NCBI GenBank assembly: GCA_016191105.1
Contig: JACPPH010000008.1
Coordinates: 2,667 to 66,666 of the forward strand
Length of the DNA: 64,000 nucleotides
From: Candidatus Saccharimonadota bacterium
Lineage (GTDB): Bacteria; Patescibacteriota; Saccharimonadia; CAILAD01; BJGX01
Reading direction: 5' to 3'
Shown piece by piece: positions 12,090-63,517 of this stretch. The notes beneath the pieces were generated by a model. That model did not search any database, was not told where the DNA came from, and was given only the letters and a program-made list of their open reading frames with translations. A program made the position numbers and the translations under genes. Numbering within the stretch: position 1 is the first letter of the stretch; every line of letters begins with the position of its first letter.

Positions 12090-12095
12090 GTAAAA

Positions 12096-44459: not shown

Positions 44460-44465
44460 TTTTGT

Positions 44466-45284: not shown

Positions 45285-45285
45285 A

Positions 45286-46140
45286 ATGCTGGGTCAACTC
45301 AAGCACCACATAAAAAAACGCCTTTTCACCGATGTAGACGAGAGTATACAAAAAAATATCCAAAAGTTTGTAAGAAGTATCGATAGGGAAAAGATACGTC
45401 AAGCTAAACGACCGGCCGACTTTGAAGGCTCTATAGAGATAGTGATACCATGTTACAATCATGGCCACTTTCTACCGCGAGCACTCAAAAGTATTCGGAA
45501 CCAAACATACAAAAAAGCACTAACTGTAACAGTTGTTAATGACAACTCTCAAGACAGCTCATTTGAAGTGATGGAGCGACTACAGTTAGAAAACAAAACC
45601 AAAAATATCGATCTCAATCTGATTAATAACGATTCAGGTAGTAATCTAAAGCAATTCGGCGCCCTCAACTTGGCAATTCAGGGCTCCAAAAATAAACTAT
45701 TTATTACTCTAAATGCCGACGATATATTAACGACAGATTGTTTAGAGCTGATTGTAGAAACCTACAAAAACAACCCCAGCATATATATGTTGGGCGGCAG
45801 CAGTTTGTGGTTTAAAGAGGGCGAGAAACTACCTGCGCACCATGCGATCCGGTCTCAGAATCTTGCTTTAACTAAATACGGCCCCAAAGATGCTCTACAG
45901 TTTAATCATCTTAACAGTATCAACATGAGCCAGTCGTCTTGTTCATTCTTTCGCGTGGCTTGGGAATTAGTGGGTGGTTATTTCCCCCCAGAAAAGCGCG
46001 TTTGTTCTTTCGATGATCGAGATTTTCAAATGCGGGTTAGCTCGGTACTGCCAGTAGGGGTATACCAAGATTATCCAATGGTATATTACAGCTCTGACAC
46101 CTCAGTAAGCCGTACAGTTGAAGGGCACTATGATACTTAA
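45286..46140 (+). CDS. Family 2 glycosyltransferase
   Basis: IVIPCYNHGHFLPRALKSIRNQTY...VVNDNSQD GT2 N-terminal signature. Confidence 0.78.
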   Translation: MLGQLKHHIKKRLFTDVDESIQKNIQKFVRSIDREKIRQAKRPADFEGSIEIVIPCYNHGHFLPRALKSIRNQTYKKALTVTVVNDNSQDSSFEVMERLQLENKTKNIDLNLINNDSGSNLKQFGALNLAIQGSKNKLFITLNADDILTTDCLELIVETYKNNPSIYMLGGSSLWFKEGEKLPAHHAIRSQNLALTKYGPKDALQFNHLNSINMSQSSCSFFRVAWELVGGYFPPEKRVCSFDDRDFQMRVSSVLPVGVYQDYPMVYYSSDTSVSRTVEGHYDT

Positions 46141-47278: not shown

Positions 47279-48405
47279 GAATCGGCATCTCCTTGCTGGA
47301 TTTTCAGCCAAATAAATCGGGCGGCATTGAAACCTATTGTCGAGACCTTATCTCGGGGCTCGAAACGATTGATCAAAAAAACGAATACTATGTATTGTTA
47401 AACCTCCACAACGCCAAGACAATCAAGGTGGGGGCAAAAAACTTTTACATTGTTTATGCCGACAAAAGATCGTTTGCTCGAAAAGTTTTGGGCAAGTTGG
47501 GTAAACGCGTCTCAAACGAAGAACTTATGAGTCGTTTTGTAGAAAACCTAGGTCTTGATTTGCTTCACTTTCCACTGCAAACTGTTCAGCCATACTTATT
47601 AGGTACTTCTGTGAAAAAAATAGTCAGCATTATGGATATTCAGCAAGAATACTTTCCTGAGTTTTTTGATAAAAAGGATCTAGCTTTTCGAAGAAAAGCC
47701 TATAAGCAGTCTTGTGATTCAGCCGTCGCAGTAATTAGTATTTCTGAATTCACCAAGCAATGCTTGGTACAAAAACTCTCGATTGCTCAAAGAAAGATTA
47801 TTACCGTTCATCTAAACTACAACGCCAGTCTGCTCGATAAAAAATCTATAAAAAGGTCAACCGACAAACCTTATTTTTACTACCCGGCCGCCACATGGCC
47901 GCACAAGAATCACCTACGCTTACTCCAGGCCTTCTCGGAATTTTCAAAAGAATATCCCAACTACCAGCTGGTCTTAACCGGAATAAAAAAGCAAAAAGGA
48001 GATGAGGTTCAGAAATATATAAACAAAAATAACCTTGGCAAAGTTATTAAGTCTTTAGGCTACGTAGACAATGATGAGCTACCGGGTCTTTACCAAAATG
48101 CCTTCGGCCTTATTTTCCCCTCACTCTTCGAGGGGTTTGGTATACCGGTAGTAGATGCTATGGTGTGTGGCTGCCCAGTGATCTGCTCAAACACCACCTC
48201 GCTACCCGAGGTGGGTGGAAATGCAGTTCTGTACTGTAATCCGCAATCTATAAAAGACATTGCATTAAAAATGACCAAACTAGCCGAAAACGAAAAACTA
48301 AGAGCTAACTTGATAAAAAGGGGTAGGGTTCAGGCTAAAAAATTTACCAAAGAAAAAATGGTTAAGAATACCTTGAAAGTCTATGAGAAGGTTGCGAGAA
48401 TGTAA
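47275..48405 (+). CDS. Family 4 glycosyltransferase (group 1)
   Basis: EGFGIPVVDAMVCGCPVICSNTTSLPEVGG (EX7E motif region). Confidence 0.8.
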   Translation: MRIGISLLDFQPNKSGGIETYCRDLISGLETIDQKNEYYVLLNLHNAKTIKVGAKNFYIVYADKRSFARKVLGKLGKRVSNEELMSRFVENLGLDLLHFPLQTVQPYLLGTSVKKIVSIMDIQQEYFPEFFDKKDLAFRRKAYKQSCDSAVAVISISEFTKQCLVQKLSIAQRKIITVHLNYNASLLDKKSIKRSTDKPYFYYPAATWPHKNHLRLLQAFSEFSKEYPNYQLVLTGIKKQKGDEVQKYINKNNLGKVIKSLGYVDNDELPGLYQNAFGLIFPSLFEGFGIPVVDAMVCGCPVICSNTTSLPEVGGNAVLYCNPQSIKDIALKMTKLAENEKLRANLIKRGRVQAKKFTKEKMVKNTLKVYEKVARM

Positions 48406-48407
48406 CG

Positions 48408-49322
48408 ATGGCAAAATCCAAACACCCAAGCGTATTCGTAGTTACACCAATCTTCAATCGCAAAGAACACACCCTGGCGTTTCTAAAAACACTTTTTGAA
48501 AACGACTACCCCAACTTTACAATGGTTATTGTAGACGATGGTTCGACCGACGGCAGTTCTGAGGCCATTAAGGCTAAATTCCCTAAAACTACCATACTAA
48601 AAGGCACGGGCAGTCTGTATTGGACAGGCTGTACAAATCTTGGTGTTGACTATGCTTTAAAACACGGCGCGGACTACATAATAACCGTGAATAACGATGT
48701 TGAGTTAAGATCAAGCTGGATATCAGAGCTGGTTGAGTGTGCCCAAAAGAACCCCAAGGCCTTAGTTGGCTCACTAATTTACTTTATGAACGACCGAAAA
48801 AGGGTTTGGTACTTTGGTGCTGATTTTAACTATGAAACTGGTGAGCTTTATCATAAAGAGGATGAGCCAAAGAGCAAGCGGCCAATAGAGTCTAAGTGGC
48901 TCACCGGCATGGGCGTGTTAATACCGGCCGGTGCTTTTAAAGATGTAGGCCATTACGATATCGAAAAGTTCCCGCAGTATTTTGCCGATGCCGACTTCTC
49001 ACTTCGAGCCGCCAAAAAAGGTTATAAACTTTTGGTAACACCCAAGGCTGTTCTATACAATGACAGTAAGTCTGACAGTGGCGGAAAACTTATGGCTCAG
49101 TATAAGCTCAGAGCTGTGCCAAAATTACTCTTTACCCCATATTTTAGTGATAGCATAAAAGTTCGCAAAGAGTTCTATAGGCGATATTTTGGTGAAGATT
49201 ACAAAAAAATATATAGACACTACTATAGACATCGTTGGGCACAATTTTATGGCCCCTATGTAAGGCACTGCGTTAGACTTAAGTTGGTTAGAATAGCGAA
49301 ATGGCTGGGAGTAAAAAAATGA
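48408..49322 (+). CDS. Family 2 glycosyltransferase
   Basis: VVTPIFNRKEHTLAFL...MVIVDDGSTDGS GT2 signature. Confidence 0.8.
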   Translation: MAKSKHPSVFVVTPIFNRKEHTLAFLKTLFENDYPNFTMVIVDDGSTDGSSEAIKAKFPKTTILKGTGSLYWTGCTNLGVDYALKHGADYIITVNNDVELRSSWISELVECAQKNPKALVGSLIYFMNDRKRVWYFGADFNYETGELYHKEDEPKSKRPIESKWLTGMGVLIPAGAFKDVGHYDIEKFPQYFADADFSLRAAKKGYKLLVTPKAVLYNDSKSDSGGKLMAQYKLRAVPKLLFTPYFSDSIKVRKEFYRRYFGEDYKKIYRHYYRHRWAQFYGPYVRHCVRLKLVRIAKWLGVKK

Positions 49323-50521
49323 AAATAGGCATAGATTTAAGACCGCTTAGTCTAGGCAACAAATATCGTGGCATTGGAATGTATATTAGTCGTTTGGTAC
49401 ATCAATTGTCGGCTATTGATCATACTAACGACTATGTTTTATTTGTGAATGATAAAGATATTATCGAACCGCTTGGTCTCGACCCGAAGTTTAAATTTAC
49501 GACAGTTATCGCCCCCAACAACTACATGCAAAACATTAAATATTTAAGGGCTTTTGTGGTTAAGACGCCGAAACTTAACATATCAAAAAGCAATATCGAT
49601 GTGTTCTTCCAAACCGATGTTTCATTTAGAATCCAGGCCGGCTCAATACCAGTAGTGGCTGTGCTATACGACTTAATCCCATTGCTCTACAAAGACAAAT
49701 ACTTAAAGCCTGAACTGTCAGGATTTAGGCCGGGTAGCTTGTTGGAATATTATAGAAGACTAAGACTTAGAAAGCTGTATTTCAAGAACTTAGAATACTA
49801 TTACAAAGCCACTAAGATAGTAAGTATTTCTAATGCATCTAAAAGGGACTTAATAAAGTTTGACGGTCGTATTAAGCCCACCAAGGTGTCAACCATATAT
49901 CTAGCTGCTGACTCGCTGCCTAAACAAGATCCTGCCACAAAGACGCTTCTAAAAAAAGCCAACGTTGCCAAAAAGTTTTTGCTATATGTCGGCGGGGCCG
50001 ACTACAGAAAGGGTGTCAACACAGTTATACCCGAGCTTAATAAACTCTTAACAGAAAATGACCTTAATTTACTTCTTGTGGGCAACGAGTTTGTGCATAC
50101 GGAGCTTAAAGAAACAAGAGCAGTTCTCGGTAATATCAAAAAACTAACAAATCCAAATAGCGTTAAACGCATTGGGTTTGTTAGTGATGCACAGCTAAAC
50201 TGGCTTTACCACCACGCCGAAGCCTTTCTGTTTCCAAGCCAGTACGAGGGTTTTGGCCTGCCAATATTAGAAGCTATGCAGGCTGGCTGTCCGGTAATTG
50301 CTTACAACAACTCCTCAATACCAGAGGTGGCGGGTAGCGCCACAATTCTGGCCGAAAACAATAAGGAGTTTGTGGATGGCGTAACGAGAGTATTGAAAGA
50401 CGCTGCGTTTCGCCGCCAGTTAATTGCCCAAGGCCACGAGCAAGTTAAAAAGTTTAGCTGGCAAAATACAGCCCGCCAGACCCTCCAAGTACTTGAATCT
50501 GTCGGTAGGCATCGGTCATAA
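49319..50521 (+). CDS. Family 4 glycosyltransferase (ORF begins at 49301)
   Basis: EGFGLPILEAMQAGCPVIAYNNSSIPEVAGSA. GGGAG RBS before the ATG at 49319. Confidence 0.8.
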   Translation: MKIGIDLRPLSLGNKYRGIGMYISRLVHQLSAIDHTNDYVLFVNDKDIIEPLGLDPKFKFTTVIAPNNYMQNIKYLRAFVVKTPKLNISKSNIDVFFQTDVSFRIQAGSIPVVAVLYDLIPLLYKDKYLKPELSGFRPGSLLEYYRRLRLRKLYFKNLEYYYKATKIVSISNASKRDLIKFDGRIKPTKVSTIYLAADSLPKQDPATKTLLKKANVAKKFLLYVGGADYRKGVNTVIPELNKLLTENDLNLLLVGNEFVHTELKETRAVLGNIKKLTNPNSVKRIGFVSDAQLNWLYHHAEAFLFPSQYEGFGLPILEAMQAGCPVIAYNNSSIPEVAGSATILAENNKEFVDGVTRVLKDAAFRRQLIAQGHEQVKKFSWQNTARQTLQVLESVGRHRS

Positions 50522-50531
50522 TGGGTGAGCT

Positions 50532-51683
50532 ATGAAAATATTTTTTGAGGCAACCCCAACTTTTAACAACAAGCGAGTGCCTGCAGCAGGCATAGCACAC
50601 TACATTTTTCATATTTACCAAGGCATGAAGCAGTATGACAAGGCTAACGACTATATTGTTTTTGGCCTCTACTTCTTAACTCGATCAACCGAGTTCAAAG
50701 AGCTCTACCCAAAAGACACACGCTTTAAGTTAATAAGGTACGTGCCAGCTAAGATTTTTAATCTCGCCAATCGTCGGGCTATTTTACCCCCTATAGAGCT
50801 TATGACTGCGGCTAAAGCCGATGTATACTTATTTACTCACTTTCGCCGCTTTCCAACGCTGTCAGGTGCTAAGACAGCAACAATTATTTACGATACAGGC
50901 TATCATTATTACCCCGAGACAATTAACAAAAAAAATCTTAAATATCTTGAGCGCCGCGTACCCCAAACAGTCAAAAAATCTGACCTTATAATCACTATTT
51001 CCGAAGCCGCCAAGCAAGACATTGTAAAGATATATGGTGCCAATCCAGAAAAGGTGGTAGTTGCGACATGCGGCATAGATACCAACAAGTTTAAGCCGGG
51101 TAAATTGAGTGAGTCGGTGCGCAAAAAATATGGGCTTCCTGCTAAGTACTTGTTATTCGTAGGAAGCATTGAGCCTCGTAAAAACATTGAACGCTTGGTG
51201 CAAGCCTATAATTCATTGCCGGCAAAACTGCAAAAAGAATATGCGCTTGTGTTGGCTGGCGGCAAGGGCTGGAACGACGAAGGCATTCATAATGCTATTA
51301 AGTCGGTTAAAGAGCCCGGCAGGGTAGTGGTGACTGGCTATGTCGATGAGGATGACATAGAGCAACTATACCGGGGCGCTACACTCTATACCTTTCCAAG
51401 TCTTTATGAGGGCTTTGGCATGTCTATACTTGAAGCCATGGCCTGTGACGTGCCGGTGTTAACAGCTAACAACTCGTCGCTGCCAGAAGTTGGTGGCGAT
51501 GCGGCGCTGTATGCCAATGAGAAAGATGTAAAAGACATTGCTAGCAAGATTGAGTTTGCTCTAACGCATCAAAAAGAAATGCAGGCTCTTGTGCAAAAGG
51601 GTAGAGAGCAGATTAAAAAATTCAGTTGGGACAAATCAGCACAAGTGATAGTTGATAGCTTGAACAAACTCTCCAAGCGGTAG
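50532..51683 (+). CDS. Family 4 glycosyltransferase
   Basis: EGFGMSILEAMACDVPVLTANNSSLPEVGGDA. Confidence 0.8.
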   Translation: MKIFFEATPTFNNKRVPAAGIAHYIFHIYQGMKQYDKANDYIVFGLYFLTRSTEFKELYPKDTRFKLIRYVPAKIFNLANRRAILPPIELMTAAKADVYLFTHFRRFPTLSGAKTATIIYDTGYHYYPETINKKNLKYLERRVPQTVKKSDLIITISEAAKQDIVKIYGANPEKVVVATCGIDTNKFKPGKLSESVRKKYGLPAKYLLFVGSIEPRKNIERLVQAYNSLPAKLQKEYALVLAGGKGWNDEGIHNAIKSVKEPGRVVVTGYVDEDDIEQLYRGATLYTFPSLYEGFGMSILEAMACDVPVLTANNSSLPEVGGDAALYANEKDVKDIASKIEFALTHQKEMQALVQKGREQIKKFSWDKSAQVIVDSLNKLSKR

Positions 51684-52754: not shown

Positions 52755-53861
52755 ATGAACAGCAGCAAACCAGTTAAAGTTGAATTTATATGCGGCTCGT
52801 ATCCGCCAATTAAAGATGGGGTGGGCTATTATATGCAACGGCTTAGCCAGCATCTAAAAGTAGACCACAAGATAATAACCTCTGTAGGTGCAGAGAAAAC
52901 GGCTATTACCGAACCGTTTGTAGGTAATTGGCGACAGGGCGTGGCCAAGAAAATAGCTATGCAGGTAAAAAAGGACCAGGCAAACCTTATCCACATGCAG
53001 TATTCATCGGTTAAATTTGGCCGCACCTTGGGCTCAACTCTGATACCCAAAGAGGTGTCCAAGCAGCTTAAACTGCCAGTTGTTGTTACTTCACATGAGT
53101 ATCACGATGCCAGTTGGCTTGGCCGAAAGCGAGTTGAGGTTTTAATAAAACCAGTTGAGGATGTAATAGTTTCTAACCAAGCTGATTACAAGGTGCTTTC
53201 AAGACGATTTCCACGCAAGAATTTCTATGTAGTGCCAATTGGCAGCAATATTGAGGTGGCTAAGTTTAGCGATGGCCAGCTAAATGACTTAAAATCTAAG
53301 TATAATCCTGGCCACAAAAAGTTAATTCTTACCTGGGGCCTGCTCGATCAGAACAAAGGGGTAGATAAGTTAGTCGAGGCCGTGTCCAGGGTTGGCTCAA
53401 GCGCTAAGCTATTAATTTCGTCTGGCTACAATCCAAAAGACCAATATCATAAAGAACTAAACAAGCAAATTGCTCATACCAGTGCCGATATTGATTGGCT
53501 GGGGTACTTGAGCGATAGCGAGATCTCGGGGTTGCTTCAGATATGCGATATTGTGGCCCTGCCCTTTAACCAGCCAGTTAGTTTGCGACGGGGCAGTGTA
53601 CTGGCCGCTCTAGCTCATGGCAAGCCAGTGATTACAACCGGCCCTAGCCAAGACAAATTACTTCAAGACAGAAAAAACTGTTACTTATTGGCCAATAACA
53701 AGCCTTACACAATTGAGCTAGCTATTAACGATTTGTTGAATGACCCAAAATTGTCTAAACTATTAGCAAGCGGTGCCCATGAGCTGGCGGCGCATTTTGA
53801 CTGGAACAATATAGCCAAGCTACATGAATCAATTTATAAACAAATTTTATCTCGACGCTAG
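52755..53861 (+). CDS. Family 4 glycosyltransferase
   Basis: GT-B group 1 architecture with an N-terminal GSYPPIKDGVG motif. Confidence 0.7.
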   Translation: MNSSKPVKVEFICGSYPPIKDGVGYYMQRLSQHLKVDHKIITSVGAEKTAITEPFVGNWRQGVAKKIAMQVKKDQANLIHMQYSSVKFGRTLGSTLIPKEVSKQLKLPVVVTSHEYHDASWLGRKRVEVLIKPVEDVIVSNQADYKVLSRRFPRKNFYVVPIGSNIEVAKFSDGQLNDLKSKYNPGHKKLILTWGLLDQNKGVDKLVEAVSRVGSSAKLLISSGYNPKDQYHKELNKQIAHTSADIDWLGYLSDSEISGLLQICDIVALPFNQPVSLRRGSVLAALAHGKPVITTGPSQDKLLQDRKNCYLLANNKPYTIELAINDLLNDPKLSKLLASGAHELAAHFDWNNIAKLHESIYKQILSRR

Positions 53862-55137
53862 GAAACACCCCGATAAGTACTTGTTAGCGCTGTTAGCATT
53901 TCTTTTGCCATTTGAGCGCATACCATCATTTTCATTTGCTGGGGTTACTCTAAGACCTAGCTTGTTTATTGGCGGTTTAATCATTTTGCGGGCAATTTGG
54001 TTCGTTATGAAATTCAAAAAGTTTAAGCCAAATAGTCTGATGGTGCCACTAGCGCTGTTTGTGCTTTGGCTGTTTATTTTAATCCCAGGCTCTATCAACC
54101 ATATGCGGGCCACCCAAGTGTTTATATTTACTCTATACACCTCTGCGCTGGCAGTGTCGGTTGGCATTATCTACCAAAAACAGTACCTAGCTGCAATAAT
54201 AAAAGGCTTGTTTGCGGGTGCAGCCGCGACATCGCTGTTTGCTATCTTTCAATATTTTGGTGATCTCTATGGCCTGCCCCAAACGGTTACTGGGTTGGCT
54301 ACCCGCTACAAATGGAACCTGTTTGGCTATGCCAGACCTCAAGCAACGGCGTTAGAGCCGCTCTATTTTGCTTCTTATCTGTTGCTGCCCATAGCAGTAG
54401 TTGTTTCGATATTGCTGTTTGGCAGTTATAAAAAATCGCGATTACTTTGGGGTTTGCTGTTTTTGTTTTCCTTGCCATTATTTCTAACTGTGTCGCGCGG
54501 TGGGCTACTTGGGTATATCGGATTGGCACTAACCCTCGTGGTTATATATGCATGCATGCCAAAACACCGTTCTGGTAAGATCTGGCCAACCCTTGCTATT
54601 ATGTTGGGTGCCTATTTGTGCTCGATCTTAATAATTACTGTTTTTCACAAGCCCATAGAAGACACCCAGAGCAAAAATACTGGTTCTGGCTCATATGTAA
54701 GCCATGTTACTGATATCAACGAGAACTCCGACTCACGGGCCATGAGCCGCGCACTTGCGATAGATTTAATAAAGAAATACCCGATTATGGGAATTGGGCC
54801 AGGTCAATTTGGACCCGCTACAAATAATAACCAACAAGCCTACTTTGGTTGGCCAATTGTCAACAATGAGCCGCTAGAGCTTCTGGCCGAAACCGGAGTG
54901 GTGGGATTTGCACTGTTGCTGAGTTTTTTTGGAGCCCTGGTTTGGGCGGCAGTGCGAATATTGCAAACTAAAAAGTGGCAGCCCGAACACATAGTGGTGT
55001 TGGCTTTGTTGGGTTACCTGACAGCCCAAGCTATTCAATATCAGACATTCTCAACTCTCTACGTAATTCAGCTCTGGTTTGCGGTAGGGTTGCTGCTGGG
55101 TGTTGTTGGGTTTAAAGCCAAAACCAACGAAAAATAA
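53824..55137 (+). CDS. O-antigen ligase/polymerase-like polytopic membrane protein (Wzy/WaaL family)
   Basis: About 10-12 TM with a large loop before the last helices, typical of the O-antigen ligase domain family. Confidence 0.6.
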   Translation: MNQFINKFYLDARKHPDKYLLALLAFLLPFERIPSFSFAGVTLRPSLFIGGLIILRAIWFVMKFKKFKPNSLMVPLALFVLWLFILIPGSINHMRATQVFIFTLYTSALAVSVGIIYQKQYLAAIIKGLFAGAAATSLFAIFQYFGDLYGLPQTVTGLATRYKWNLFGYARPQATALEPLYFASYLLLPIAVVVSILLFGSYKKSRLLWGLLFLFSLPLFLTVSRGGLLGYIGLALTLVVIYACMPKHRSGKIWPTLAIMLGAYLCSILIITVFHKPIEDTQSKNTGSGSYVSHVTDINENSDSRAMSRALAIDLIKKYPIMGIGPGQFGPATNNNQQAYFGWPIVNNEPLELLAETGVVGFALLLSFFGALVWAAVRILQTKKWQPEHIVVLALLGYLTAQAIQYQTFSTLYVIQLWFAVGLLLGVVGFKAKTNEK

Positions 55138-55198: not shown

Positions 55199-56299
55199 CT
55201 AGCGGCCGAGCCAGTTGTCGGGGGCGTAGGCCCAACCGAGGTAGGGATTGCTCAGATACCCCACCACCGGGTGTTGCCGTACAGGCAGCCGATCTCCATC
55301 GAATCCTTGAGTAGAGATTGCCTGGCCATTGCCTAACGAAACACCATTGTGACCGTAGCCGCCTGCGCCGCTATAGAACACAATCGCGCCAGGTGGGGGA
55401 TTGGTGTCGGTGCGGATTCGACCAGCATTTAGCTGGGCGTAGTAGTTGGCCATGGCGCTGGCATACTGTCGACCCGCTCCTCGTCCGCCCAGCGCAACTT
55501 CTACGAACATCTCGCAGATTCCCGACCAAGGTCGGGCGAACTCATTGCTCCAGGTTGGGTCTGGCGAATTCTTCTCGGCCGTGGCCCAGTCAACGGCACG
55601 TTGTTCACGGCCGCCGATAGTTGGCGCGCAGCTGGTTGCAGCTCGAACTCCACCTGCCGAATCCCACATGATCGAGCCACCCTGGAAGTCTTGACGAGTG
55701 CCCGCGCAGTAGCCGTACTCATCGCTGATTGGCCACTGTAGGTAACCACCGGCATCACCATTGGCGTAGTACCAGCTCAAGAAGCCGCTGCGCACCCCCT
55801 GAACCCGCTTGACTGCATCGCCACGGGCGATTACTGCATAGCCCATGGAACCGCCATTGAAGTCCTGAGCCCAGCCGGTGTTGTTGCCCCAGCGGTGAGA
55901 TTCCATGACCGGATAGCCAATCTCAGCTGAGCCTTTGGTTCTGGCGTAGGCCCATAATTCACCCACAACGTTGTAGGCGGTGCCACTGCAGCTTGGCTGT
56001 ACGATGGCATTTTCGCCATAGCCTGGGCTTGAAAAGCGCTGCATGCAAGCTGAGCCCCAGCGCTCGACAGCTGCCACGGGCGAGCCCATGACCGAGCCGC
56101 CCTTTACGTTGTAGGCATCTACAAAGGCTTGGGGATTGCTGGCACCTGTTCCGGCCACCAAGGGTTGGATTGTGGTGCTGCTAGGTGTTGGAGTGGGCGA
56201 AATGCCCACCGGCGTTGGCACAGCGCAAGCGGCTGCAATCATACCGAATGTCAATGTAAAGAGTGGCCCAAATAGGGCCACCCTCCGTGCGATACTCAT
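55199..56299 (-). CDS. Secreted LGFP-repeat protein with a C-terminal CHAP/NlpC-P60-like cysteine peptidase domain (high-GC, actinobacterial-type)
   Basis: Signal peptide. About four LGFP-like repeats (IGYP..E..WG...G..QDF.GG...). C-terminal Cys...His module (WSGICEMF...GGYGHNGVSLG). Local GC is far above the window average. Confidence 0.7.
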   Translation of the reverse strand: MSIARRVALFGPLFTLTFGMIAAACAVPTPVGISPTPTPSSTTIQPLVAGTGASNPQAFVDAYNVKGGSVMGSPVAAVERWGSACMQRFSSPGYGENAIVQPSCSGTAYNVVGELWAYARTKGSAEIGYPVMESHRWGNNTGWAQDFNGGSMGYAVIARGDAVKRVQGVRSGFLSWYYANGDAGGYLQWPISDEYGYCAGTRQDFQGGSIMWDSAGGVRAATSCAPTIGGREQRAVDWATAEKNSPDPTWSNEFARPWSGICEMFVEVALGGRGAGRQYASAMANYYAQLNAGRIRTDTNPPPGAIVFYSGAGGYGHNGVSLGNGQAISTQGFDGDRLPVRQHPVVGYLSNPYLGWAYAPDNWLGR

Positions 56300-56523
56300 T
56301 ATTCACCCTCCTGTTGTAGTACTCCAACAAGTATCGGTATTTACAATATCGCAAGCCCAACGCTAGTTGCAAGCATGGAGCGGCATCATGCCACTACATG
56401 CTTGATCATAGGGTATAATAGTTGGCGTGTGATATTGTTGGAACTAGTAGTGATGTTTCTTACTAAAAGGGTCTGGATAAATATTTATGAAATACAAGCT
56501 AAGTAATAGCAACCTTTAACGCC

Positions 56524-57654
56524 ATGCGAATACTTATAGATGCCCGATGGATCAAGCAAACTGGTATTGGCCGCTATATTGAGCAAACCGTCGAGCAAAT
56601 TCTACAACTCGATAAGTCCAACCGCTATATTTTACTTGTTCGGCCACAAGACCGTGCAAAACTTAAACTACAAGCACCCAATCTAGAATACCTAGAATCC
56701 AACGAGCCGTGGTTTACCTTTCGAGAGCAGACGACTTTTTTACGTCGTATTAACTTGGCCAAGCCAGACTTAGTGCACTTTACTAACTTTGATTTCCCAA
56801 TTCTCTATCGCGGCCCTTTCGTAATAACTATTCACGACCTCACACTATTGGAATTCAAAAATGTTAATCGGAGCAAAATGCTGCCGGCCTACTACCATGT
56901 TAAAGACGCCGTTATGCGCACTGTTTTGCGCAAAGGCATAGAAAAATCTCAAAAAGTACTGGTACCAACCAACTATGTTAAACAAGGCCTACTTAAGCGC
57001 TACAAATCGTCGGCTCGCAAAATTGTAGTTACCCATGAAGCTGCCGATGCACCCTACCCAAACCCGCGCGTTAATCTAGCCAAGTTTGGTATCGATAAGC
57101 CCTTCTTGTTTTATGTAGGCAATGCTTATCCGCACAAAAACTTAGAGCGCTTGATAATTGCTTTTGGAAAACTAGTTAATAGCTATCGGCTCGACTATCA
57201 ACTTGTAATCGCCGGTCGTAAAGATGCTTTTCACAAGCGGCTAGAGGATGAGGTTGCGCAGGCTAATTTGCAACACCGGGTAATCTTTACCAACTATGTT
57301 GATGATGCTGAGCTGGCCGGCCTGTACAAGAAGGCGGCCCTATATGTGTTTCCGTCACTATCGGAGGGGTTTGGTCTGCCACCACTCGAGGCTTTGGGCT
57401 ATGGCTTGCCAGTAGCCAGCAGCAAGGCCACCTGCTTACCCGAGATATTGGGCAATGCGGCCGCCTACTTTAACCCTAAGAGCCCCAACGACATGGCCAA
57501 GGTTATTTCGAGCCTTTTAGCCGACACAAAGCAACAGCAAGAACTGGTAAAAAAAGGCAAGCAACAATTTAATAAATTTAGTTGGCGGCAAACTGCCCAA
57601 GAAACGCTGGCTGTTTACGAGAGCGTGGAGCGCAAACTCAAGAAGCAGACTTAG
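56524..57654 (+). CDS. Family 4 glycosyltransferase
   Basis: EGFGLPPLEALGYGLPVASSKATCLPEILGNAAAYFNP. Confidence 0.8.
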   Translation: MRILIDARWIKQTGIGRYIEQTVEQILQLDKSNRYILLVRPQDRAKLKLQAPNLEYLESNEPWFTFREQTTFLRRINLAKPDLVHFTNFDFPILYRGPFVITIHDLTLLEFKNVNRSKMLPAYYHVKDAVMRTVLRKGIEKSQKVLVPTNYVKQGLLKRYKSSARKIVVTHEAADAPYPNPRVNLAKFGIDKPFLFYVGNAYPHKNLERLIIAFGKLVNSYRLDYQLVIAGRKDAFHKRLEDEVAQANLQHRVIFTNYVDDAELAGLYKKAALYVFPSLSEGFGLPPLEALGYGLPVASSKATCLPEILGNAAAYFNPKSPNDMAKVISSLLADTKQQQELVKKGKQQFNKFSWRQTAQETLAVYESVERKLKKQT

Positions 57655-58681
57655 AATTAGCTACTAGGTCTTTTACGGACTGCCACATTTCGGGCCGGCC
57701 GTTCTCTTTTAGCCAATACCACCATTCTGCTCCCCATAAGTCAAAGTTTTTAATTTGGCTCTGTCGCCCATAGGCTATGTTTTCGCTAAACTGTCGCGGG
57801 CTCATGGTCTTACTGGCTTCGTTAAAGCTGAGATACTCGTTGCCAACGGGCCCCCAGGCCTCGGCCTGAAGTTCGTGTATTTTAATCTGTTGGCCGGTTA
57901 AAAACTGAATCCAGGCTGCTTTTAGCCAGTTGTAGTTGCCATCTTGCGGATAGCGATAGTAGCCATCGAATAGGCTGCTCCAAACATATCGATACAATGA
58001 AATGCCGAATACATCGGCAAACGGGCCTTTTAGGGGAAAGCCAAATTGGTCGCTCTGAGTAAGTACAATGGGCCGGGTCTTATCTAAGCCGCGAACCAGC
58101 TCCACCTCTCGCTTTAGCTGGCTATTGGTTAAGTTTGCGCCCGGGCAGTTGCCAAAGCTTTTTAGTAGGAACTCATTTTCGACCTGCCAAGCCTCGATAG
58201 TGGGATTGTCTTTGTAGCGGTTTACCACTGCGGCTAGGTAGGGGTCGATTTGCGTTTGAACTTGAGCCGGATCATTCTTGTTGAGCCAACTAGGGTAATA
58301 GCACTCGGGTGAGCGTATTAGCTTCTGGCCAATGTTGAGCGTGACTTTGGCGCCACGTTTTTTGGCCTGTTCGACCATCCAGTCGGTTTGTGAGAAATCA
58401 AACTGGCCCTGGGTAGGTTCAGTGCGATCCCAATAAGCCGCAATCCGCAAGTTTTTAAAATTTAAATCATCGAGTAGAGCCGAGTAGTTGGCTTGCCAGT
58501 CCACGCCGTAGCGTTCGGCCTGGGGTTGGCTAAAACTTACACCAATTACCTCGGGCTTGTTGAGGTTAACCGCCCAATACCAATACATTAGTACAATACT
58601 AATTATGGCCAGAGCATAAACAGCTCCAACCAGAATTATGAATAGGGTTTTGGCCCAATTTTTGAGCTTAGAGACTAACAT
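57638..58681 (-). CDS. Membrane-anchored glycoside hydrolase (TIM-barrel, GH5/GH113-like; candidate mannanase)
   Basis: N-terminal TM. YWDRTEPTQGQFDF...GAKVTL and IEAWQVENEF (NE catalytic-acid-like) motifs typical of clan GH-A enzymes. Confidence 0.55.
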   Translation of the reverse strand: MLVSKLKNWAKTLFIILVGAVYALAIISIVLMYWYWAVNLNKPEVIGVSFSQPQAERYGVDWQANYSALLDDLNFKNLRIAAYWDRTEPTQGQFDFSQTDWMVEQAKKRGAKVTLNIGQKLIRSPECYYPSWLNKNDPAQVQTQIDPYLAAVVNRYKDNPTIEAWQVENEFLLKSFGNCPGANLTNSQLKREVELVRGLDKTRPIVLTQSDQFGFPLKGPFADVFGISLYRYVWSSLFDGYYRYPQDGNYNWLKAAWIQFLTGQQIKIHELQAEAWGPVGNEYLSFNEASKTMSPRQFSENIAYGRQSQIKNFDLWGAEWWYWLKENGRPEMWQSVKDLVANSKSAS

Positions 58682-59124: not shown

Positions 59125-60228
59125 TCAGGCGGCGACCTTCACCCGGCCACGAATGAGCTTCTTGATGGACTTGGCGGACTTGCGACGAGCCGCATCGTTG
59201 TGCACCACCACCTCCAGGGCATCGGTGAACGCCAGTAGCTGCAGCGAAAGATCGCTATAGCCTTCGTCGAAAGGTTCCCACGAGACAGCCTGGCGAAGTT
59301 CGTTGAACACCTGGGACGTTCTGAACTCCGGGAAGTCGCGGATCAGGGTAACCAACCCACTGGCCGCACACATCTGGCGCTCAGCCAGGTAGGCGCTAAT
59401 GACCAGGCCGATGTCTTCATCTGCCACAACTCCGTGCCTGCTGTGCTGCTTGGCAAACTGCCCGGCATTGCACAGTGGGTTGAAGATAGCGGCGCCTACA
59501 AGGCTGCGAACCGCCGCACTTGCATCTGACGTGCCCTCAGCTTCGAGCAGACGATCGAAGAGTTCGTCGACATGCACCTGAACAGCTCGTGCCAGCAGGA
59601 TCATGTCGGCGGCAGAACCGGCGGCCTTTTCGTTGAACTCCCATTGGGCGTCGAACCGCCGGATGGCCGCCGACCACCGCCATCGCATTGCGCTCGGGTT
59701 GTCGCGCGGTGGCTTGTGCCGATCGCGCAGGGCTGCGGAAGCACCGACCTTTGCCGATGCTTGCAGCAAGCGCTCACGAATAGCCGGCGCATAGCGTAGC
59801 GACATCCCGGCCAGTACGGCAAGCATGTCGGCGCGCTTGGCCACGTCGTCTTTGACGGCATACCAGTTAACGCCCAGGAGCTCGCTGTAACTACGCAAGA
59901 TCTCGGCGTCGCCGCTGAGCTCAGACGACCGCTTTCGAATACTTTCGTCGGCGTTTTCGGCACCACGCAGCCAGGCGTCGAAGGTGGTGGGGTGGAACCC
60001 GGCCTCTTTCCAGACCTCGTTGTGGCGCATATAGATGATCTGGCCGATCCGGTACTGATAATCCGGATTAGTGGCGGCCACGATCACATTCGCCTTGGTG
60101 TTGCGCCACCTGTCACGCGGTTCTTTCTGGTACTGCAGTGTGCGGTAGGTGAACTTGCCGTGTCCCAGCTTGCGCCAGGGGAGACTGTTGTCGGAGTGTT
60201 TACGCACACTCCACTTAAATAGAGCCAT
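59125..60228 (-). CDS. Hypothetical protein (high GC), adjacent to tRNA-Asn
   Basis: 367-aa ORF with no recognisable motifs. Clearly higher GC than its surroundings. Confidence 0.5.
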   Translation of the reverse strand: MALFKWSVRKHSDNSLPWRKLGHGKFTYRTLQYQKEPRDRWRNTKANVIVAATNPDYQYRIGQIIYMRHNEVWKEAGFHPTTFDAWLRGAENADESIRKRSSELSGDAEILRSYSELLGVNWYAVKDDVAKRADMLAVLAGMSLRYAPAIRERLLQASAKVGASAALRDRHKPPRDNPSAMRWRWSAAIRRFDAQWEFNEKAAGSAADMILLARAVQVHVDELFDRLLEAEGTSDASAAVRSLVGAAIFNPLCNAGQFAKQHSRHGVVADEDIGLVISAYLAERQMCAASGLVTLIRDFPEFRTSQVFNELRQAVSWEPFDEGYSDLSLQLLAFTDALEVVVHNDAARRKSAKSIKKLIRGRVKVAA

Positions 60229-60398: not shown

Positions 60399-60473
60399 TC
60401 CGGAGTAGCTCAATGGTAGAGCAATTCGCTGTTAACGAAAAGGTTGCCGGTTCGAATCCGGCCTCCGGAGCCA
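60399..60473 (+). tRNA. tRNA-Asn (anticodon GTT)
   Basis: Acceptor TCCGGAG/CTCCGGA. D-arm GCTCAATGGTAGAGC. Anticodon loop CTGTTAA. T-arm GCCGGTTCGAATCCGGC. CCA is encoded. Confidence 0.85.
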
Positions 60474-60691: not shown

Positions 60692-61891
60692 ATGAGTAAT
60701 GAAGATGTAAGTAAACCTAAAGATTCTGATTCTAGTTTTAATTCAGAATTAACCGATAGCCTTGCTAAAATTCGCGCGACAAATAATGAGATAGAAAAGC
60801 AAGGTAATGGATTTGAATTACAATCTCCTCAGGAATTTCGTGATGACTTTTCGGCTTTGGCACAATATGCCACCGATTTTGTTGGTATAGAAACAATGCA
60901 GTTTGAAGTTACCCAAGCCACTATACCCATTTTTAATGCCCTAAAAGCGGCAAAAGTTAATGGTGCAAAAACTCGTTTTGTTTATGACCGTGTAGCTCGA
61001 GAACATGTTCGCAGTGGCAATGACCAAGCTTGGAGTAAATATGGGAAAACAGTATACAAAGGTAATAAATCAGAGCTACAACAAGCTATTAATTCTCGAG
61101 AACAACAAATAGCCGAGTTAGAAGAACTTGGAATAACACACTCCTCTTTTAGAGACCGTGGTGAAAATGAAAGAGGTAGCCATAACCATATCAAGCTAGC
61201 GATTGTTGATGATGTGGCTTGGTTTGGGACAATGAATTTGCGACAAGTAGATTTTGAGATGAGCAACTTTATGATAAAAGTTACTAACCCTAAATTAGTT
61301 GAGGTGTTAAAAGAAATTTTCTTAAAAACTGAGCCGTCATCGGCAATTGCAGATGAAGTTTTTGTAGGTGAAGAGCATGGATTGTATAAAGATACACAAC
61401 TACTAGTTGATGGTGGAGAAAAAGGTGAATCAGTAATTTATGACAAGGCTTTAGAAATGGCTAAAAGCCTGGGACCAGAAGATGAGTTTATAATGATAAA
61501 CCAGTGGCCGCCAGCTAAGACGATGTTTGGTGAGATTGCAGATGTCCTACAAGAAAAGATAGAGGCTGGTAGTACCGGTTTGTTTTTACTAAGCCCAAAA
61601 GAATATTATCACCCTCTTTCTAAAAAGCTTGGGACAGCTTTTCAAGTATGGCTAAATCAAGAGTCAAAAAAATCTCCAAACTTTAACTTTAAAAATTTAG
61701 TACGACCGACTCATGCTAAGGCTTTTGTTATTAAACGAGCAGATGGTGATATAGAAGTATTGTTTGGGTCTCATAACTTTGCCGAACGGACTGTAAACAA
61801 CGGTACAAAAGAATTGGCAATGTGGAGCAAAGACCCTGAAATAGTTGGACAGATTATGGCTTTTCTTGAAAAAGTGCAGGCTGAGAAATAG
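60692..61891 (+). CDS. Phospholipase D-family (two HKD-like motifs) protein, possible nuclease/phosphodiesterase
   Basis: HIKLAIVDD matches HxKxxxxD, with a second degenerate HAKAFVIK...GSHNF motif. Confidence 0.6.
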   Translation: MSNEDVSKPKDSDSSFNSELTDSLAKIRATNNEIEKQGNGFELQSPQEFRDDFSALAQYATDFVGIETMQFEVTQATIPIFNALKAAKVNGAKTRFVYDRVAREHVRSGNDQAWSKYGKTVYKGNKSELQQAINSREQQIAELEELGITHSSFRDRGENERGSHNHIKLAIVDDVAWFGTMNLRQVDFEMSNFMIKVTNPKLVEVLKEIFLKTEPSSAIADEVFVGEEHGLYKDTQLLVDGGEKGESVIYDKALEMAKSLGPEDEFIMINQWPPAKTMFGEIADVLQEKIEAGSTGLFLLSPKEYYHPLSKKLGTAFQVWLNQESKKSPNFNFKNLVRPTHAKAFVIKRADGDIEVLFGSHNFAERTVNNGTKELAMWSKDPEIVGQIMAFLEKVQAEK

Positions 61892-62467: not shown

Positions 62468-63517
62468 ATGCCAGAAGAGCTAAAAAATAACACCGAAGCA
62501 TCTAAGGGCCAACCAAGTCAGCTTGGTAAGGAGTTGAGTGACATTGTGGATGGAAACAATAAAGTTAGAGAGGCTGAGACACAAATCATTATCTCTGGTA
62601 CTCAAGCATATCAAACTGCCGAGAAAGGTAGACCCGAGCTAGAAGACCCAGCAACAGGTATCGTTGAACTGCATTATACTAACAGTTCAGGTTCAGAGAT
62701 AACACTAATTGGCACACATCATGTTAGTGATATGGCTGACCCGGAAGTACAATATCTTGGTGACAAGCTACAGTCTATTTCAGACAAGTCTTCAAAAGTA
62801 CTTATACTCGAAAGTCAGTACGGAGAAGAAGGAGGCATTCCAGATAATCCGGAAGATGCTTTTGGAGAATTTGCATACATGGCGGCTGTTGGGAAGCAAG
62901 CAGGGATTGAAGTTATTCCGGGCGAGCCAGACCCTCATGATACCGCTAAAAAAATACTTGTTGAACGCCCAGGCATTACAAGAGATGAGGTAGCCTTACA
63001 TTATGGCCTGAAAACATTGGTAGGTGTTTTTCGGGATTCTCCTACAGCCTCGCTTGATGCGGTTGCTCCGTACTTACACCATAGCGTTGGCGTAGCAGGC
63101 GACAAGTCAGAGGGAGGTTGGGTTGAAAAAAGCACGACACGAGATGAAGTTGTTAGGATGTCTGAACAGGAAAAGGCGATAATTGTAAAAGAGATGCCTG
63201 CAATCGTAGATAAGCTTAACGCCGAATTTGAAAAAATTAAGCCAGGTGAAAGGCTATTGCAACTTGAGCCAGATGGGAAGCTAACTTTATTATATGACCT
63301 GAACAAACCCCCTGTACTATGGGACCCTTCCCCTGAACAATCTGGAGGCCAGCCTAATGTGATAACTGAGATTTCACGAATGGATATGCTAATGCGAGAT
63401 AGACATACATTCGAGCTGACGGTTCACGCAATCAAACGGGGAAAAGAGCCAATTGTTGCGGTAGGAAGTTCTCATGTCAGCACATTAAAGCCTGCTTTTG
63501 ACGCTGCTTATAGTTAA
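62468..63517 (+). CDS. TraB/GumN-family protein
   Basis: ITLIGTHHVSD (GTxHV) and C-terminal VAVGSSHVS motifs typical of the TraB/PrgY/GumN family. Confidence 0.55.
   Translation: MPEELKNNTEASKGQPSQLGKELSDIVDGNNKVREAETQIIISGTQAYQTAEKGRPELEDPATGIVELHYTNSSGSEITLIGTHHVSDMADPEVQYLGDKLQSISDKSSKVLILESQYGEEGGIPDNPEDAFGEFAYMAAVGKQAGIEVIPGEPDPHDTAKKILVERPGITRDEVALHYGLKTLVGVFRDSPTASLDAVAPYLHHSVGVAGDKSEGGWVEKSTTRDEVVRMSEQEKAIIVKEMPAIVDKLNAEFEKIKPGERLLQLEPDGKLTLLYDLNKPPVLWDPSPEQSGGQPNVITEISRMDMLMRDRHTFELTVHAIKRGKEPIVAVGSSHVSTLKPAFDAAYS

Follow-up and report, generated by a model that had tools for sequence, protein, structure and literature searches.

NlpC/P60 D,L-endopeptidases, such as LytE and CwlO of Bacillus subtilis, MepS (Spr) of Escherichia coli, and RipA of Mycobacterium tuberculosis, are papain-like cell wall enzymes with a catalytic Cys, a catalytic His and a third triad position, some 12 residues after this His, that is taken by His, Glu, Gln or Asn. 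They are exported and carry a separate wall-targeting module, e.g., LysM, SH3b or a coiled coil. Among the SH3b-type proteins of actinobacteria are the “NlpC/P60 family protein” of Kribbella antiqua and SH3-domain proteins of Gaiellaceae and Frankia; these are encoded in high-GC genomes and possess an N-terminal SH3b or other domain. A different type of cell surface module is built from LGFP repeats, five of which form the C-terminal domain of mycoloyltransferase A (MytA/PS1; 6swz, 6sx4) of Corynebacterium glutamicum, where they are fused to an esterase. A role as wall anchor has been proposed for the LGFP repeats of Corynebacterium PS1 and of the phage Barnyard lysin gp39 (PMC3314691), and binding of a cell wall polymer for those of PS1 and of phage lysins (PMC3314691; PMC12113857). 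Lysin A proteins combining a peptidoglycan hydrolase with a three-repeat LGFP module occur in Gordonia, Rhodococcus and Mycobacterium phages (including Gordonia phages Matteo, Trine and Gsput1, Rhodococcus phage Trina, and Barnyard gp39), with catalytic domains that are mostly amidases or other peptidases.

The gene described here is contained in a stretch of 64,000 nucleotides (“the window”; contig JACPPH010000008.1, assembly GCA_016191105.1) from a Candidatus Saccharimonadota bacterium, and its product of 366 amino acids is, judged from the predicted structure, most likely a wall-tethered peptidoglycan endopeptidase. The protein is identical to NCBI MBI2798447.1 (locus tag HYX70_04105), annotated as “hypothetical protein”, and the gene is also present on Logan contig SRR12113392_3535. 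The original prediction, made by reading the window, had placed the gene at 55199–56320; the lower limit holds, and the upper one overshoots the ATG start codon at 56299 on the minus strand. The features of the gene and its surroundings are compiled in Table 1. An Rfam search near the gene found tRNA-Asn alone. As a separate observation, the Candidatus Saccharibacteria MAG to which the window belongs contains a T4SS-like cluster (T4SS pilins, TrbL, TraG).

Table 1. Features of the peptidase gene, its product and the adjacent genes (positions refer to the window).
Feature	Position	Strand	Basis
Wzy_C (O-antigen ligase/polymerase-like) membrane protein, convergent neighbour	53824..55137	+	Pfam Wzy_C, 56.6 bits
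Hairpin, perfect 14-nt stem and 5-nt loop	55147..55179	.	Repeat search
CDS, 366-aa LGFP-triplet and NlpC/P60 protein	55199..56299	-	ORF list
Residues 229-366, predicted NlpC/P60-fold papain-like peptidase domain	55202..55615	-	Foldseek and profile matches
His317 codon, predicted catalytic histidine, motif GH.G.S.G	55349..55351	-	Aligned to the “HVGIYIG” His of Spr
Cys262 codon, predicted catalytic nucleophile	55514..55516	-	Matches the catalytic Cys of E. coli Spr in the alignment
Residues 48-222, three LGFP-type repeats forming one putative wall-binding module	55634..56158	-	Pfam, profile and fold search
Residues 26-47, Pro/Thr/Ser-rich linker	56159..56224	-	Alignment; low model confidence
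Residues 1-25, N-terminal signal sequence	56225..56299	-	Sequence and hydropathy; helix 3-22 in AlphaFold model; alignment
Shine-Dalgarno AGGAGGG, 6 nt 5' of ATG	56306..56312	-	Read from sequence
GT4 glycosyltransferase, divergently transcribed partner	56524..57654	+	Pfam Glycos_transf_1, Glyco_transf_4
Membrane-anchored clan GH-A glycoside hydrolase, annotated “cellulase family”	57638..58681	-	Partial Pfam GH42 and GH10 matches

The predicted architecture of a signal sequence, LGFP repeats and a C-terminal Cys-His domain is borne out by fold search, alignment and hydropathy. The N-terminus has a positively charged start (RR), a hydrophobic helix and the motif A-A-A-C25, which, compared with the lipobox [LVI][ASTVI][GAS]C, is off consensus at position -3. 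A close relative (P0004) shows I-T-A-C at this site, and most orthologues lack the Cys and end in an AxA-type site; judged from these motifs, a lipoprotein signal peptide is possible in the window protein. The subsequent Pro/Thr/Ser-rich linker is found only in the subclade formed by the window protein, P0001 and P0004. The AlphaFold model of the protein has a pLDDT of 85, with values of 55–60 across residues 1–40.

The LGFP assignment exceeds the Pfam gathering cutoff (PF08310, 32.8 bits vs. 22, in two stretches). About four repeats had been predicted; the model contains three (residues 57–112, 113–170, and 171–222), of which only the third is canonical, and it is this repeat alone that canonical actinobacterial tandem LGFP repeats match. 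Repeats 1 and 2 are divergent and include a Cys pair (Cys85 and Cys104) that is invariant across the family. A family profile run against the PDB retrieved the PS1/MytA LGFP domain 6swz at E 1e-16, with all five PS1 repeats matched, and Foldseek aligned the same structure at E 1.1e-7 (target-normalised TM 0.61, rmsd 2.6 A, 172 columns). Thus, the repeat fold of residues 48–222 is that of the Corynebacterium domain, and the motif G-[YF]-P...Q.F.GG.I.W is common to both. The proteins differ in that the Saccharibacteria module consists of three N-terminal instead of five C-terminal repeats, lacks canonical features in its first two repeats, and is fused to a peptidase rather than to an esterase. 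By analogy with PS1 and the phage lysins, the LGFP triplet would bind a cell wall polymer.

For the C-terminal domain, Foldseek returned LytE (8i2d; TM 0.70), MepS, RipA, Acd24020 and SagA at probability 1.00; within the compared set of NlpC/P60 endopeptidases, the common papain-like fold gave TM values of 0.56–0.72 (target-normalised). In the family profile search of the PDB, Spr, CwlO and MepS were matched at E 0.005–0.009. The predicted catalytic residues Cys262 and His317, which align with those of Spr, are invariant in 24/24 family members; in the model, Cys262 opens a helix (262–269) and His317 opens a strand (317–323). The original wording “CHAP/NlpC-like hydrolase” can, thus, be narrowed: based on the fold search, which retrieved NlpC/P60 proteins and not a single CHAP lysin as structural neighbours, the domain is NlpC/P60 rather than CHAP. 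As a single sequence, the protein stays below the Pfam thresholds of both families (NLPC_P60, PF00877: 18.0 bits vs. cutoff 23, E 0.0028; CHAP, PF05257: 17.8 bits vs. cutoff 26); several orthologues have an NLPC_P60/CHAP Pfam match on record, PF00877 among them.

The domain departs from the classical endopeptidases at the third catalytic position: where Spr has His131, the family has an invariant Ser329 and the actinobacterial SH3b clade a Gly, and the role could be filled by other polar residues that are invariant (Q326, T330, Q342). Furthermore, it has invariant motifs of its own, WSGxCE, ISTQG, VWQH and YLGWAYAP, which lie outside the classical NlpC/P60 signature; the last of these belongs to the C-terminal motif YLGWAYAPxxWxGR. 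These motifs and the tail YLGWAYAPxxWPGR are common to a subfamily occurring mostly in Actinomycetota. Together with the sub-threshold Pfam scores, the altered triad and the private motifs could be taken to indicate that the domain is non-catalytic or specific for another amide or ester bond, the protein being mainly a wall-bound adhesin or scaffold. This we consider improbable, given that the invariant Cys and His are placed as expected for a papain-like fold and that the fold matches active endopeptidases. Compared with these enzymes, the targeting module is LGFP and not LysM, SH3b or a coiled coil, and the combination of export with a separate wall-targeting module is shared, though predicted here.

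Full-length homologues of the protein are 43–63% identical, and every one of known source is from Saccharibacteria. In a scan of species-representative genomes, full-length matches were confined to MAGs that either belong to Saccharimonadia/Saccharibacteria or are labelled as unclassified “bacterium” and share the gene context, and no full-length homologue was found in Actinomycetota. The top full-length matches of known source come from the lineage of the neighbouring genes and show the same relative GC offset and the same neighbours, which goes halfway towards refuting the original prediction on its own terms. A pattern-limited genome scan returned no member of the family from cultivated oral Saccharibacteria, and it may therefore be accessory.

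At the level of the individual modules, the closest relatives outside Saccharibacteria reside in high-GC genomes, where the taxon labels derive from the genome scan, a few source names and contig GC, and where named Actinomycetota are available for the catalytic module. To this extent, the description “actinobacterial-type” was apt for the modules and misses the full-length protein. The C-domain is 58–70% identical to that of the orthologues and 51–58% identical to the Kribbella, Gaiellaceae and Frankia proteins and to a protein of an Actinomycetes MAG, with 42–64% for the whole actinobacterial SH3b-type clade, which is, thus, nearly as close as the orthologues. That clade ends in the tail motif LGWA.PIGS, which differs from YLGWAYAPxxWPGR, has SH3b or other N-terminal domains in place of LGFP, and is encoded in gene neighbourhoods unrelated to the Saccharibacteria locus. 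Intact N-modules occur on contigs of 65–70% GC. In word-index protein searches with each domain alone, the C-domain gave five matches and the N-module gave none.

Neighbour-joining trees were calculated for the N-module and, over 135 columns, for the C-domain. Bootstrapping recovered Saccharibacteria as a monophyletic clade in 0/60 replicates, so that a single ancient acquisition is not demonstrated and neither direction nor number of transfers can be taken from the trees; the actinobacterial SH3b clade was recovered in 50/60. On the sequence evidence, the shared modules point to an ancient inter-phylum exchange, which more probably ran into Saccharibacteria. With orthologues that have diverged to identities of only 43–50%, any transfer must be older than their separation.

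The base composition of the gene had been noted as conspicuous, and the gene is indeed strikingly GC-rich relative to its neighbours, with a GC of 0.595 and a GC3 of 0.621 compared with 0.44–0.48 and 0.45–0.54, respectively, in the flanking genes; only two other genes of the window (59125..60228 and 2369..2842) are equally GC-rich. This had been read as marking a candidate for horizontal acquisition; such an event would be a recent transfer from an actinobacterial host, with the gene inserted into the polysaccharide locus and retaining the GC of its donor. In addition to the GC contrast, an identity of the C-domain of up to 64% to members of the actinobacterial SH3b-type clade (the named Kribbella protein being 58% identical) and an exact 13-nt direct repeat on both sides of the CDS would fit such an event. 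The direct repeat was rejected as an insertion mark, since it consists of the Shine-Dalgarno context of the gene itself and has no equivalent around the orthologues.

Decomposition of the GC content (observed 0.596; background about 0.455) gave an expectation of 0.552 from the amino acids with the window's codon usage, i.e., about 70% of the excess is explained by amino acid composition, the protein having much Gly, Ala, Pro, Arg and Trp and little Lys (1.1%). The remainder is a preference for C-ending codons of the kind also seen in GroEL of the same genome: an expectation of 0.497 for GC3 compares with an observed 0.619 (z = 4.9; background sd 2.4, maximum 4.8), and the third-position excess sits in C3 (0.40) and not in G3 (0.22), without the G3-rich pattern of high-GC genomes. 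In terms of codon fit, the gene scores -1.747 bits/codon with the window background and -1.690 with the GroEL/PGI set, as opposed to -1.931 with high-GC loci. The comparison with neighbouring genes, thus, reveals native-type instead of foreign usage; the better fit to its own genome than to high-GC genomes speaks therefore against a recent insertion.

The same offset accompanies the orthologues. A GC excess of +0.07 to +0.17 was found in 12/12 Saccharibacteria loci, and likewise in two additional loci (L029 and L036), with orthologue GC following that of the host genome (0.49 in genomes of 0.34–0.38; 0.55–0.61 in genomes of 0.44–0.48). A residual positive GC3 excess is present in all 12 loci (z 0.4–9.5) and is incompletely explained. 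The high GC is, hence, a property of the protein family and no scar of recent transfer. With orthologues in the same slot of more than 12 other Saccharibacteria genomes, a recent acquisition is very improbable and largely refuted. In methodological terms, a local GC peak of +0.14 can stay a stable protein-family property for very long and need not mark a recent transfer.

The gene lies in an envelope-polysaccharide locus, although not as the insertion that had been assumed; its position is a conserved syntenic slot. The clan GH-A glycoside hydrolase, a TM-anchored protein with weak PDB matches to GH10 xylanases, GH5 and PslG, has counterparts of 54–61% identity beside the orthologue in 11/12 loci. 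The GT4 gene adjoins or nearly adjoins the orthologue in most loci and is several genes off in one (L012), and the Wzy_C gene is kept nearby in four (L002, L010, L011, L029). Altogether, the glycoside hydrolase, the GT4 gene and the peptidase gene occur together in nearly all 12 loci analysed, as well as in L029 and L036, and the peptidase gene occupies the same GH/GT4 slot in 11 of the 12 and again in these two. Within this conserved Saccharibacteria set, the peptidase gene is an old member passed on by vertical inheritance. Within the slot, domains have been swapped, as seen from a different N-terminus in L018 and a divergent C-domain (P0031) in L036.

The peptidase and Wzy_C genes converge on a hairpin (arms 55147–55160 and 55166–55179) located between their stop codons. 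A perfect 14-bp bidirectional terminator had been predicted; the perfect 14-nt repeat is there, lacks an adjacent T-run on both strands and was not called by a terminator scan. Its position argues for a transcript-end hairpin, which we regard as likely, and orthologue genes also have a hairpin 3' of the stop codon, mostly with a T-run.

Taken together, we favour, as moderately probable, an exported, wall-tethered peptidoglycan endopeptidase that is an old resident of the Saccharibacteria polysaccharide locus and acts on the bacterium's own wall. The signal sequence, in this genome possibly with a lipoprotein anchor and the Pro/Thr-rich spacer, would export the protein; the three-repeat LGFP module would then bind a cell wall polymer, and the NlpC/P60-fold domain with Cys262 and His317 would cut the stem peptides of peptidoglycan, at the γ-D-Glu-diamino-acid bond if it acts like LytE, MepS and RipA. 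The gene neighbourhood suggests the bacterium's own wall as target, where cleavage may be coupled to the polysaccharide that the neighbouring genes produce. The conserved link to envelope-polysaccharide genes of the bacterium itself is at least as good an argument for own-wall action as for action on a host surface.

The hosts of Saccharibacteria epibionts are mostly actinobacterial, and the enzyme might instead be directed against them. In this scenario, the LGFP triplet would bind an actinobacterial, possibly mycolate-type, host wall polymer, and the peptidase would open host peptidoglycan for attachment, feeding or lysis, a design shared with the endolysins of Gordonia and Rhodococcus phages. 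The three-repeat LGFP modules of lysin A from such phages superpose on residues ~48–222 (E 1e-6 to 1e-9, rmsd 2.8–4.7), and tblastn against phage GenBank entries returned lysin A of Gordonia phage Trine as the sole match, 39.6% identical across residues 114–219 (two repeats); an IMG/VR scan returned no relatives of the protein. The location of the closest non-Saccharibacteria relatives of both modules in high-GC genomes and the wall-anchor role proposed for LGFP in PS1 and Barnyard gp39 agree with a host wall as target, as does the example of a cultivated Saccharibacteria parasite which lyses Gordonia, needs the mycolic acid layer of its host and encodes arabinogalactan-degrading enzymes (PMC11880426). 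The exchange of domains within the conserved slot would also suit a host-interaction protein and recalls the modular evolution of lysins.

Several features set the protein apart from phage lysin A, however: its domain order is reversed, its catalytic domain is of the NlpC/P60 fold, its LGFP part shares only about 20% identity with the phage domains, and its gene is chromosomal, with a predicted signal peptide and without holin context. Against a host-directed enzyme stand, moreover, the stable association of the gene with polysaccharide-synthesis genes of the organism itself, a cytoplasmic GT4 among them, and the probable membrane tether in this genome, which would limit its reach. LGFP triplets are also encoded on a 45%-GC contig (L035) whose gene content looks neither actinobacterial nor Saccharibacteria-like, and we found no literature tying LGFP to Saccharibacteria. 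On balance, host-directed action appears possible, yet rather unlikely. Still somewhat less probable is a version in which the slot holds a fast-shuffling, lysin-like enzyme with modules drawn from an Actinomycetota/actinophage pool, opening actinobacterial (possibly mycolate-type) host walls and, thereby, determining the host range of environmental Saccharibacteria. Giant low-GC LGFP proteins were considered separately as Saccharibacteria adhesins and dismissed, because the one contig examined, L035, looks non-CPR.

The family, annotated only as “hypothetical”, joins a wall-binding module of the Corynebacterium/phage-lysin type to a predicted peptidoglycan endopeptidase domain. To our knowledge, very few factors are known by which Saccharibacteria recognise and breach their hosts, and we know of few autolysins from this lineage. 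Directed at the host wall, the enzyme would be a concrete, testable candidate for a factor in attachment, feeding or host range; directed at the bacterium's own wall, as favoured here, it would tie wall remodelling to a conserved polysaccharide locus.

The GC-rich gene beside the polysaccharide genes is best read as encoding an exported, wall-tethered NlpC/P60 endopeptidase, predicted as such from sequence and model, and as an old resident of the envelope-polysaccharide locus of Saccharibacteria. An AGGAGGG Shine-Dalgarno motif sits 6 nt upstream of its ATG; the end initially placed at 56320 lies 21 nt beyond this start codon. By exact look-up, the window belongs to a Candidatus Saccharibacteria MAG and the product is MBI2798447.1 (locus tag HYX70_04105), annotated as "hypothetical protein".

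Positions of the LGFP gene, its modelled domains and other features of the window and of related loci
Feature	Position	Strand	Description
LGFP gene	55199..56299	-	single long ORF, 366 aa, ATG start
N-terminal helix	residues 3-22		AlphaFold2 model
Pro/Thr-rich stretch	after N-terminal helix		AlphaFold2 model, low confidence
Three repeats of ~55 residues	residues 57-112, 113-170, 171-222		AlphaFold2 model
C-terminal alpha+beta domain	residues 229-366		AlphaFold2 model
Perfect inverted repeat	55147-55179		between convergent stop codons; 14-nt stem, 5-nt loop
13-nt direct repeat TTCACCCTCCTGT	55179-55191, 56302-56314		either side of LGFP CDS; just two copies in window
tRNA-adjacent ORF	59125..60228	-	367 aa; matches neither Pfam nor NCBIfam
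tRNA-Asn	60399..60473		adjoins the preceding ORF
PLD-like gene	60692..61891		strongly AT3-rich, z = -8.5
ORF	62468..63517		strongly AT3-rich, z = -5.1
GroEL	53..1573		C3-rich
PGI	2869..3990		C3-rich
Two unannotated ORFs	1680..2117, 2369..2842		C3-rich
T4SS-like cluster	~6200..22700		five T4SS_pilin genes, TrbL_3 (748 aa), PrgI-like, TraC-like, TraG P-loop ATPase
Glycosyltransferase-rich part	39934..51683		GC 0.34-0.44
Gene in this part	41995..42882		GC 0.336, GC3 z = -5.2
L018 slot protein	8766..9716		307-316 aa; same catalytic domain, different Cys-rich N-terminal part
L036 slot protein (P0031)	9001..10212		403 aa; LGFP triplet, insertion, divergent catalytic domain
L033 protein	7713..10877		contig GC 0.65; 1054 aa; two LGFP-triplet modules, Golvesin_C domains

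Pfam LGFP passes its threshold in two stretches of the protein (32.8 bits vs 22), bearing out this part of the original prediction; as a single sequence, the protein stays below threshold for both NLPC_P60 (18 vs 23 bits) and CHAP (17.8 vs 26 bits). A family profile built from an alignment of 24 full-length homologues matches the LGFP domain of C. glutamicum PS1/mycoloyltransferase A (6swz, 6sx4; E 1e-16) as well as Spr, CwlO and MepS (E 0.005-0.009), aligning Cys262 and His317 with the catalytic Cys and His of Spr. The AlphaFold2 model made from the same alignment (mean pLDDT 85) contains three repeats, rather than about four as had been counted. In a Foldseek search of the PDB, the top match is 6swz (E 1e-7, rmsd 2.6 Å over 172 columns), followed by the NlpC/P60 endopeptidases LytE (TM 0.70), MepS, RipA, Acd24020 and SagA. 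The modelled catalytic domain has the NlpC/P60 fold; of the proposed CHAP/NlpC-like Cys-His module, the NlpC part is retained and the sub-threshold CHAP assignment dropped. Neither Cys262 nor His317 varies within the family. The usual third catalytic position is occupied by Ser329, likewise invariant, but is Gly in actinobacterial relatives; therefore, just a Cys-His dyad is established. At the N-terminus, two Arg, a hydrophobic helix and A-A-A-Cys25 may constitute a lipoprotein signal. Cys and Pro/Thr-rich spacer are confined to the subclade of the window protein and its relatives P0001 and P0004, while an AxA-type site ends the signal of the other orthologues.

Protein searches yielded ~24 full-length clusters (43-63% identity), all metagenomic, and an exhaustive profile search 5,960 proteins at E <= 1e-3 (182 at E <= 1e-30); 185,579 species-representative genomes were scanned. 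Across these genomes, full-length matches are confined to MAGs labelled Saccharimonadia/Saccharibacteria and to unclassified "bacterium" MAGs in which the gene context is the same. Among sequences with determinable source, the fusion of LGFP triplet and NlpC/P60 domain was seen only in Saccharibacteria. In the genome scan, the C-terminal domain by itself matches another Saccharibacteria genome, an Actinomycetes MAG (54% identity), Flexivirga, Solirubrobacteraceae, Mycobacteriales, Acidipropionibacterium, Mycobacterium and one Planctomycetota-labelled MAG of 64% GC.

The gene had been taken to be inserted between polysaccharide-locus genes; its orthologues, however, hold the same slot in other Saccharibacteria. 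Of 12 Saccharibacteria loci analysed, 11 have a membrane-anchored glycoside hydrolase (GH; 54-61% identical) adjoining the orthologue, as do L029 and L036; most of these also have a GT4 glycosyltransferase (47-61% identical) adjacent to the orthologue or close by, in the order GH-gene-GT4 or GH-GT4-gene. Further out, Wzy_C, more glycosyltransferases and a GDP-mannose dehydratase are often encoded. The slot hydrolase belongs to clan GH-A, with weak similarity to GH10, GH42, GH5 and PslG, the gene of which is part of the Pseudomonas psl exopolysaccharide operon. The slot is kept despite domain differences, as in L018 (other N-terminal part) and L036 (divergent catalytic domain). The glycosyltransferase-rich part of the window's locus is GC-poor; hence, the locus is compositionally heterogeneous in both directions.

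That the gene is strikingly GC-rich was confirmed by per-gene composition of 56 ORFs: its GC is 0.595 (GC1 0.594, GC2 0.569, GC3 0.621) vs 0.44-0.48 in the flanking genes (GC3 0.45-0.54), and only the tRNA-adjacent ORF and one C3-rich ORF (2369..2842) are equally GC-rich. If its amino acids were encoded with the codon preferences of the remaining window genes, a GC of 0.552 would be expected, compared with a background of ~0.455 and an observed 0.596, so that ~70% of the excess reflects amino-acid composition (Gly 14.5% vs 6.7% in the rest of the window, Ala 12.3% vs 8.6%, Trp 3.3% vs 1.1%, Lys 1.1% vs 7.3%). The remainder is synonymous (GC3 0.619 vs expected 0.497, z = 4.9, ~2 sd of the window genes' own spread with sd 2.4 and maximum 4.8) and resides in C-ending codons (C3 0.40 vs 0.25; G3 0.22 vs 0.21). 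This pattern is common to GroEL, PGI and two small genes of the window (z 3.4-6.8), whereas high-GC loci have G3 0.36. Conditional codon log-likelihoods for the LGFP gene are -1.747 bits/codon under the window background, -1.690 under the GroEL/PGI set and -1.931 under high-GC loci; native usage fits better than high-GC usage. Orthologues exceed the rest of their locus by 0.07-0.17 GC in 12/12 Saccharibacteria loci and in L029 and L036, following the genome (0.49 where genome GC is 0.34-0.38; 0.55-0.61 where it is 0.44-0.48), and homologous genes in high-GC contigs tend towards a lower GC than the surrounding sequence. The GC peak is therefore a property of the family rather than a sign of recent foreign origin. 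GC3 remains above expectation in 12/12 loci (z 0.4-9.5), a residue that is incompletely explained, with expression-linked codon bias as a candidate cause. Recent insertion, at odds with the conserved slot, the family-wide GC offset and the native codon usage, was rejected.

The tRNA-adjacent ORF, compositionally the most deviant in the window (GC 0.603, GC3 0.724, amino-acid-corrected z = 9.8; G3 0.33), is the stronger candidate for recent acquisition from a foreign source. Here the codon fit is reversed (-1.851 for the window background, -1.684 for the GroEL/PGI set, -1.628 for high-GC loci). Nevertheless, genes occupying the same position upstream of GH in L002, L009 and L010 are remotely and colinearly similar to it (21% identity, E 2e-5). 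Restriction-modification genes just outside the window adjoin the two AT3-rich genes. The T4SS-like region also encodes an M23 peptidase protein of 1070 aa together with a large Amidase_2 protein, hence more wall hydrolases in the window. The Logan contig SRR12113392_3535, which shares its genes with the window, ends near window position 6148, whereas the NCBI contig measures 203 kb; the window thus derives from the longer assembly.

Downstream of the LGFP gene, the claimed perfect 14-bp bidirectional terminator is indeed a perfect 14-nt repeat, but its bidirectional function had position as sole support: neither strand has an adjoining T-run and a terminator scan makes no call there. A transcript-end hairpin is nevertheless plausible, because orthologues also have a hairpin after the stop codon, in most with a T-run. 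Of the 13-nt direct repeat, one copy, reading ACAGGAGGGTGAA on the coding strand, is the Shine-Dalgarno context of the gene, and the second lies between stop codon and hairpin. L011 has a similar GGAGGGTGA after the stop codon; a flanking direct repeat around the orthologue was not seen in L029 or L011.

Older ties to Actinomycetota emerge when profile-search hits are sorted with separate HMMs of the two modules. The intact three-repeat module, fused to other domains, also occurs in contigs of 65-70% GC: in three copies in P0078 (cutinase, CW_binding_2), in two copies scoring like Saccharibacteria orthologues in P0079 (Golvesin_C, conjugative-element-like context), and with DUF2599 in P0063. 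Canonical tandem LGFP proteins, e.g., from Geodermatophilus, match repeat 3 only. The triplets of the L033 protein resemble the Saccharibacteria family as closely as the family's members resemble one another, and their conjugative-element-like surroundings (TraG/VirD4-like, Replic_Relax, methylases, Mrr) are a possible means of exchanging modules. The window's repeat module is 38-47% identical to orthologues, 70% to P0001 and 39-42% to modules in high-GC contigs; its catalytic domain is 58-70% identical to orthologues (median 64%), 42-64% to an SH3b-fused clade (median 58%; Kribbella 0.58, Gaiellaceae 0.55, Frankia 0.51) and 0.55 to the Actinomycetes MAG. Neighbour-joining trees place the Saccharibacteria fusion proteins beside the SH3b clade (bootstrap 50/60) within a radiation dominated by high-GC-type sequences; Saccharibacteria monophyly receives 0/60. 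We conclude that an old module exchange occurred between Saccharibacteria and Actinomycetota. Transfer from Actinomycetota to Saccharibacteria is more parsimonious, though not demonstrated, since in high-GC genomes both modules show greater diversity and combine more widely with other domains.

The three-repeat module also appears in Gordonia/Rhodococcus phage proteins of the lysin A or amidase type (Foldseek, viral models; E 1e-6 to 1e-9), with 39.6% identity to Gordonia phage Trine lysin A over residues 114-219 (tblastn); an IMG/VR scan found no relative. LGFP has been proposed as the wall anchor of Corynebacterium PS1 and is a binding module in the lysins Barnyard gp39 and of Tsukamurella phage TPA2 (PMC3314691). 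The saccharibacterial parasite Ca. Mycosynbacter amalyticus lyses Gordonia, requires the mycolic acid layer of its host and encodes arabinogalactan-degrading enzymes (PMC11880426). A literature search found no paper naming Saccharibacteria and LGFP together.

The LGFP triplet would dock the exported, predicted endopeptidase on a wall polymer. As an alternative, this could be the host wall, in keeping with the affinities of both modules to actinobacterial proteins and phage lysins, the domain shuffling in the slot and the apparently accessory distribution. Action on the bacterium's own wall is slightly favoured, because GT4, Wzy and GH genes of the bacterium itself are conserved neighbours of the gene, a membrane tether is probable, and codon usage is native and possibly that of high expression. 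The LGFP gene adds an uncharacterised protein of previously unreported, lineage-specific architecture to the modular cell-wall hydrolases.
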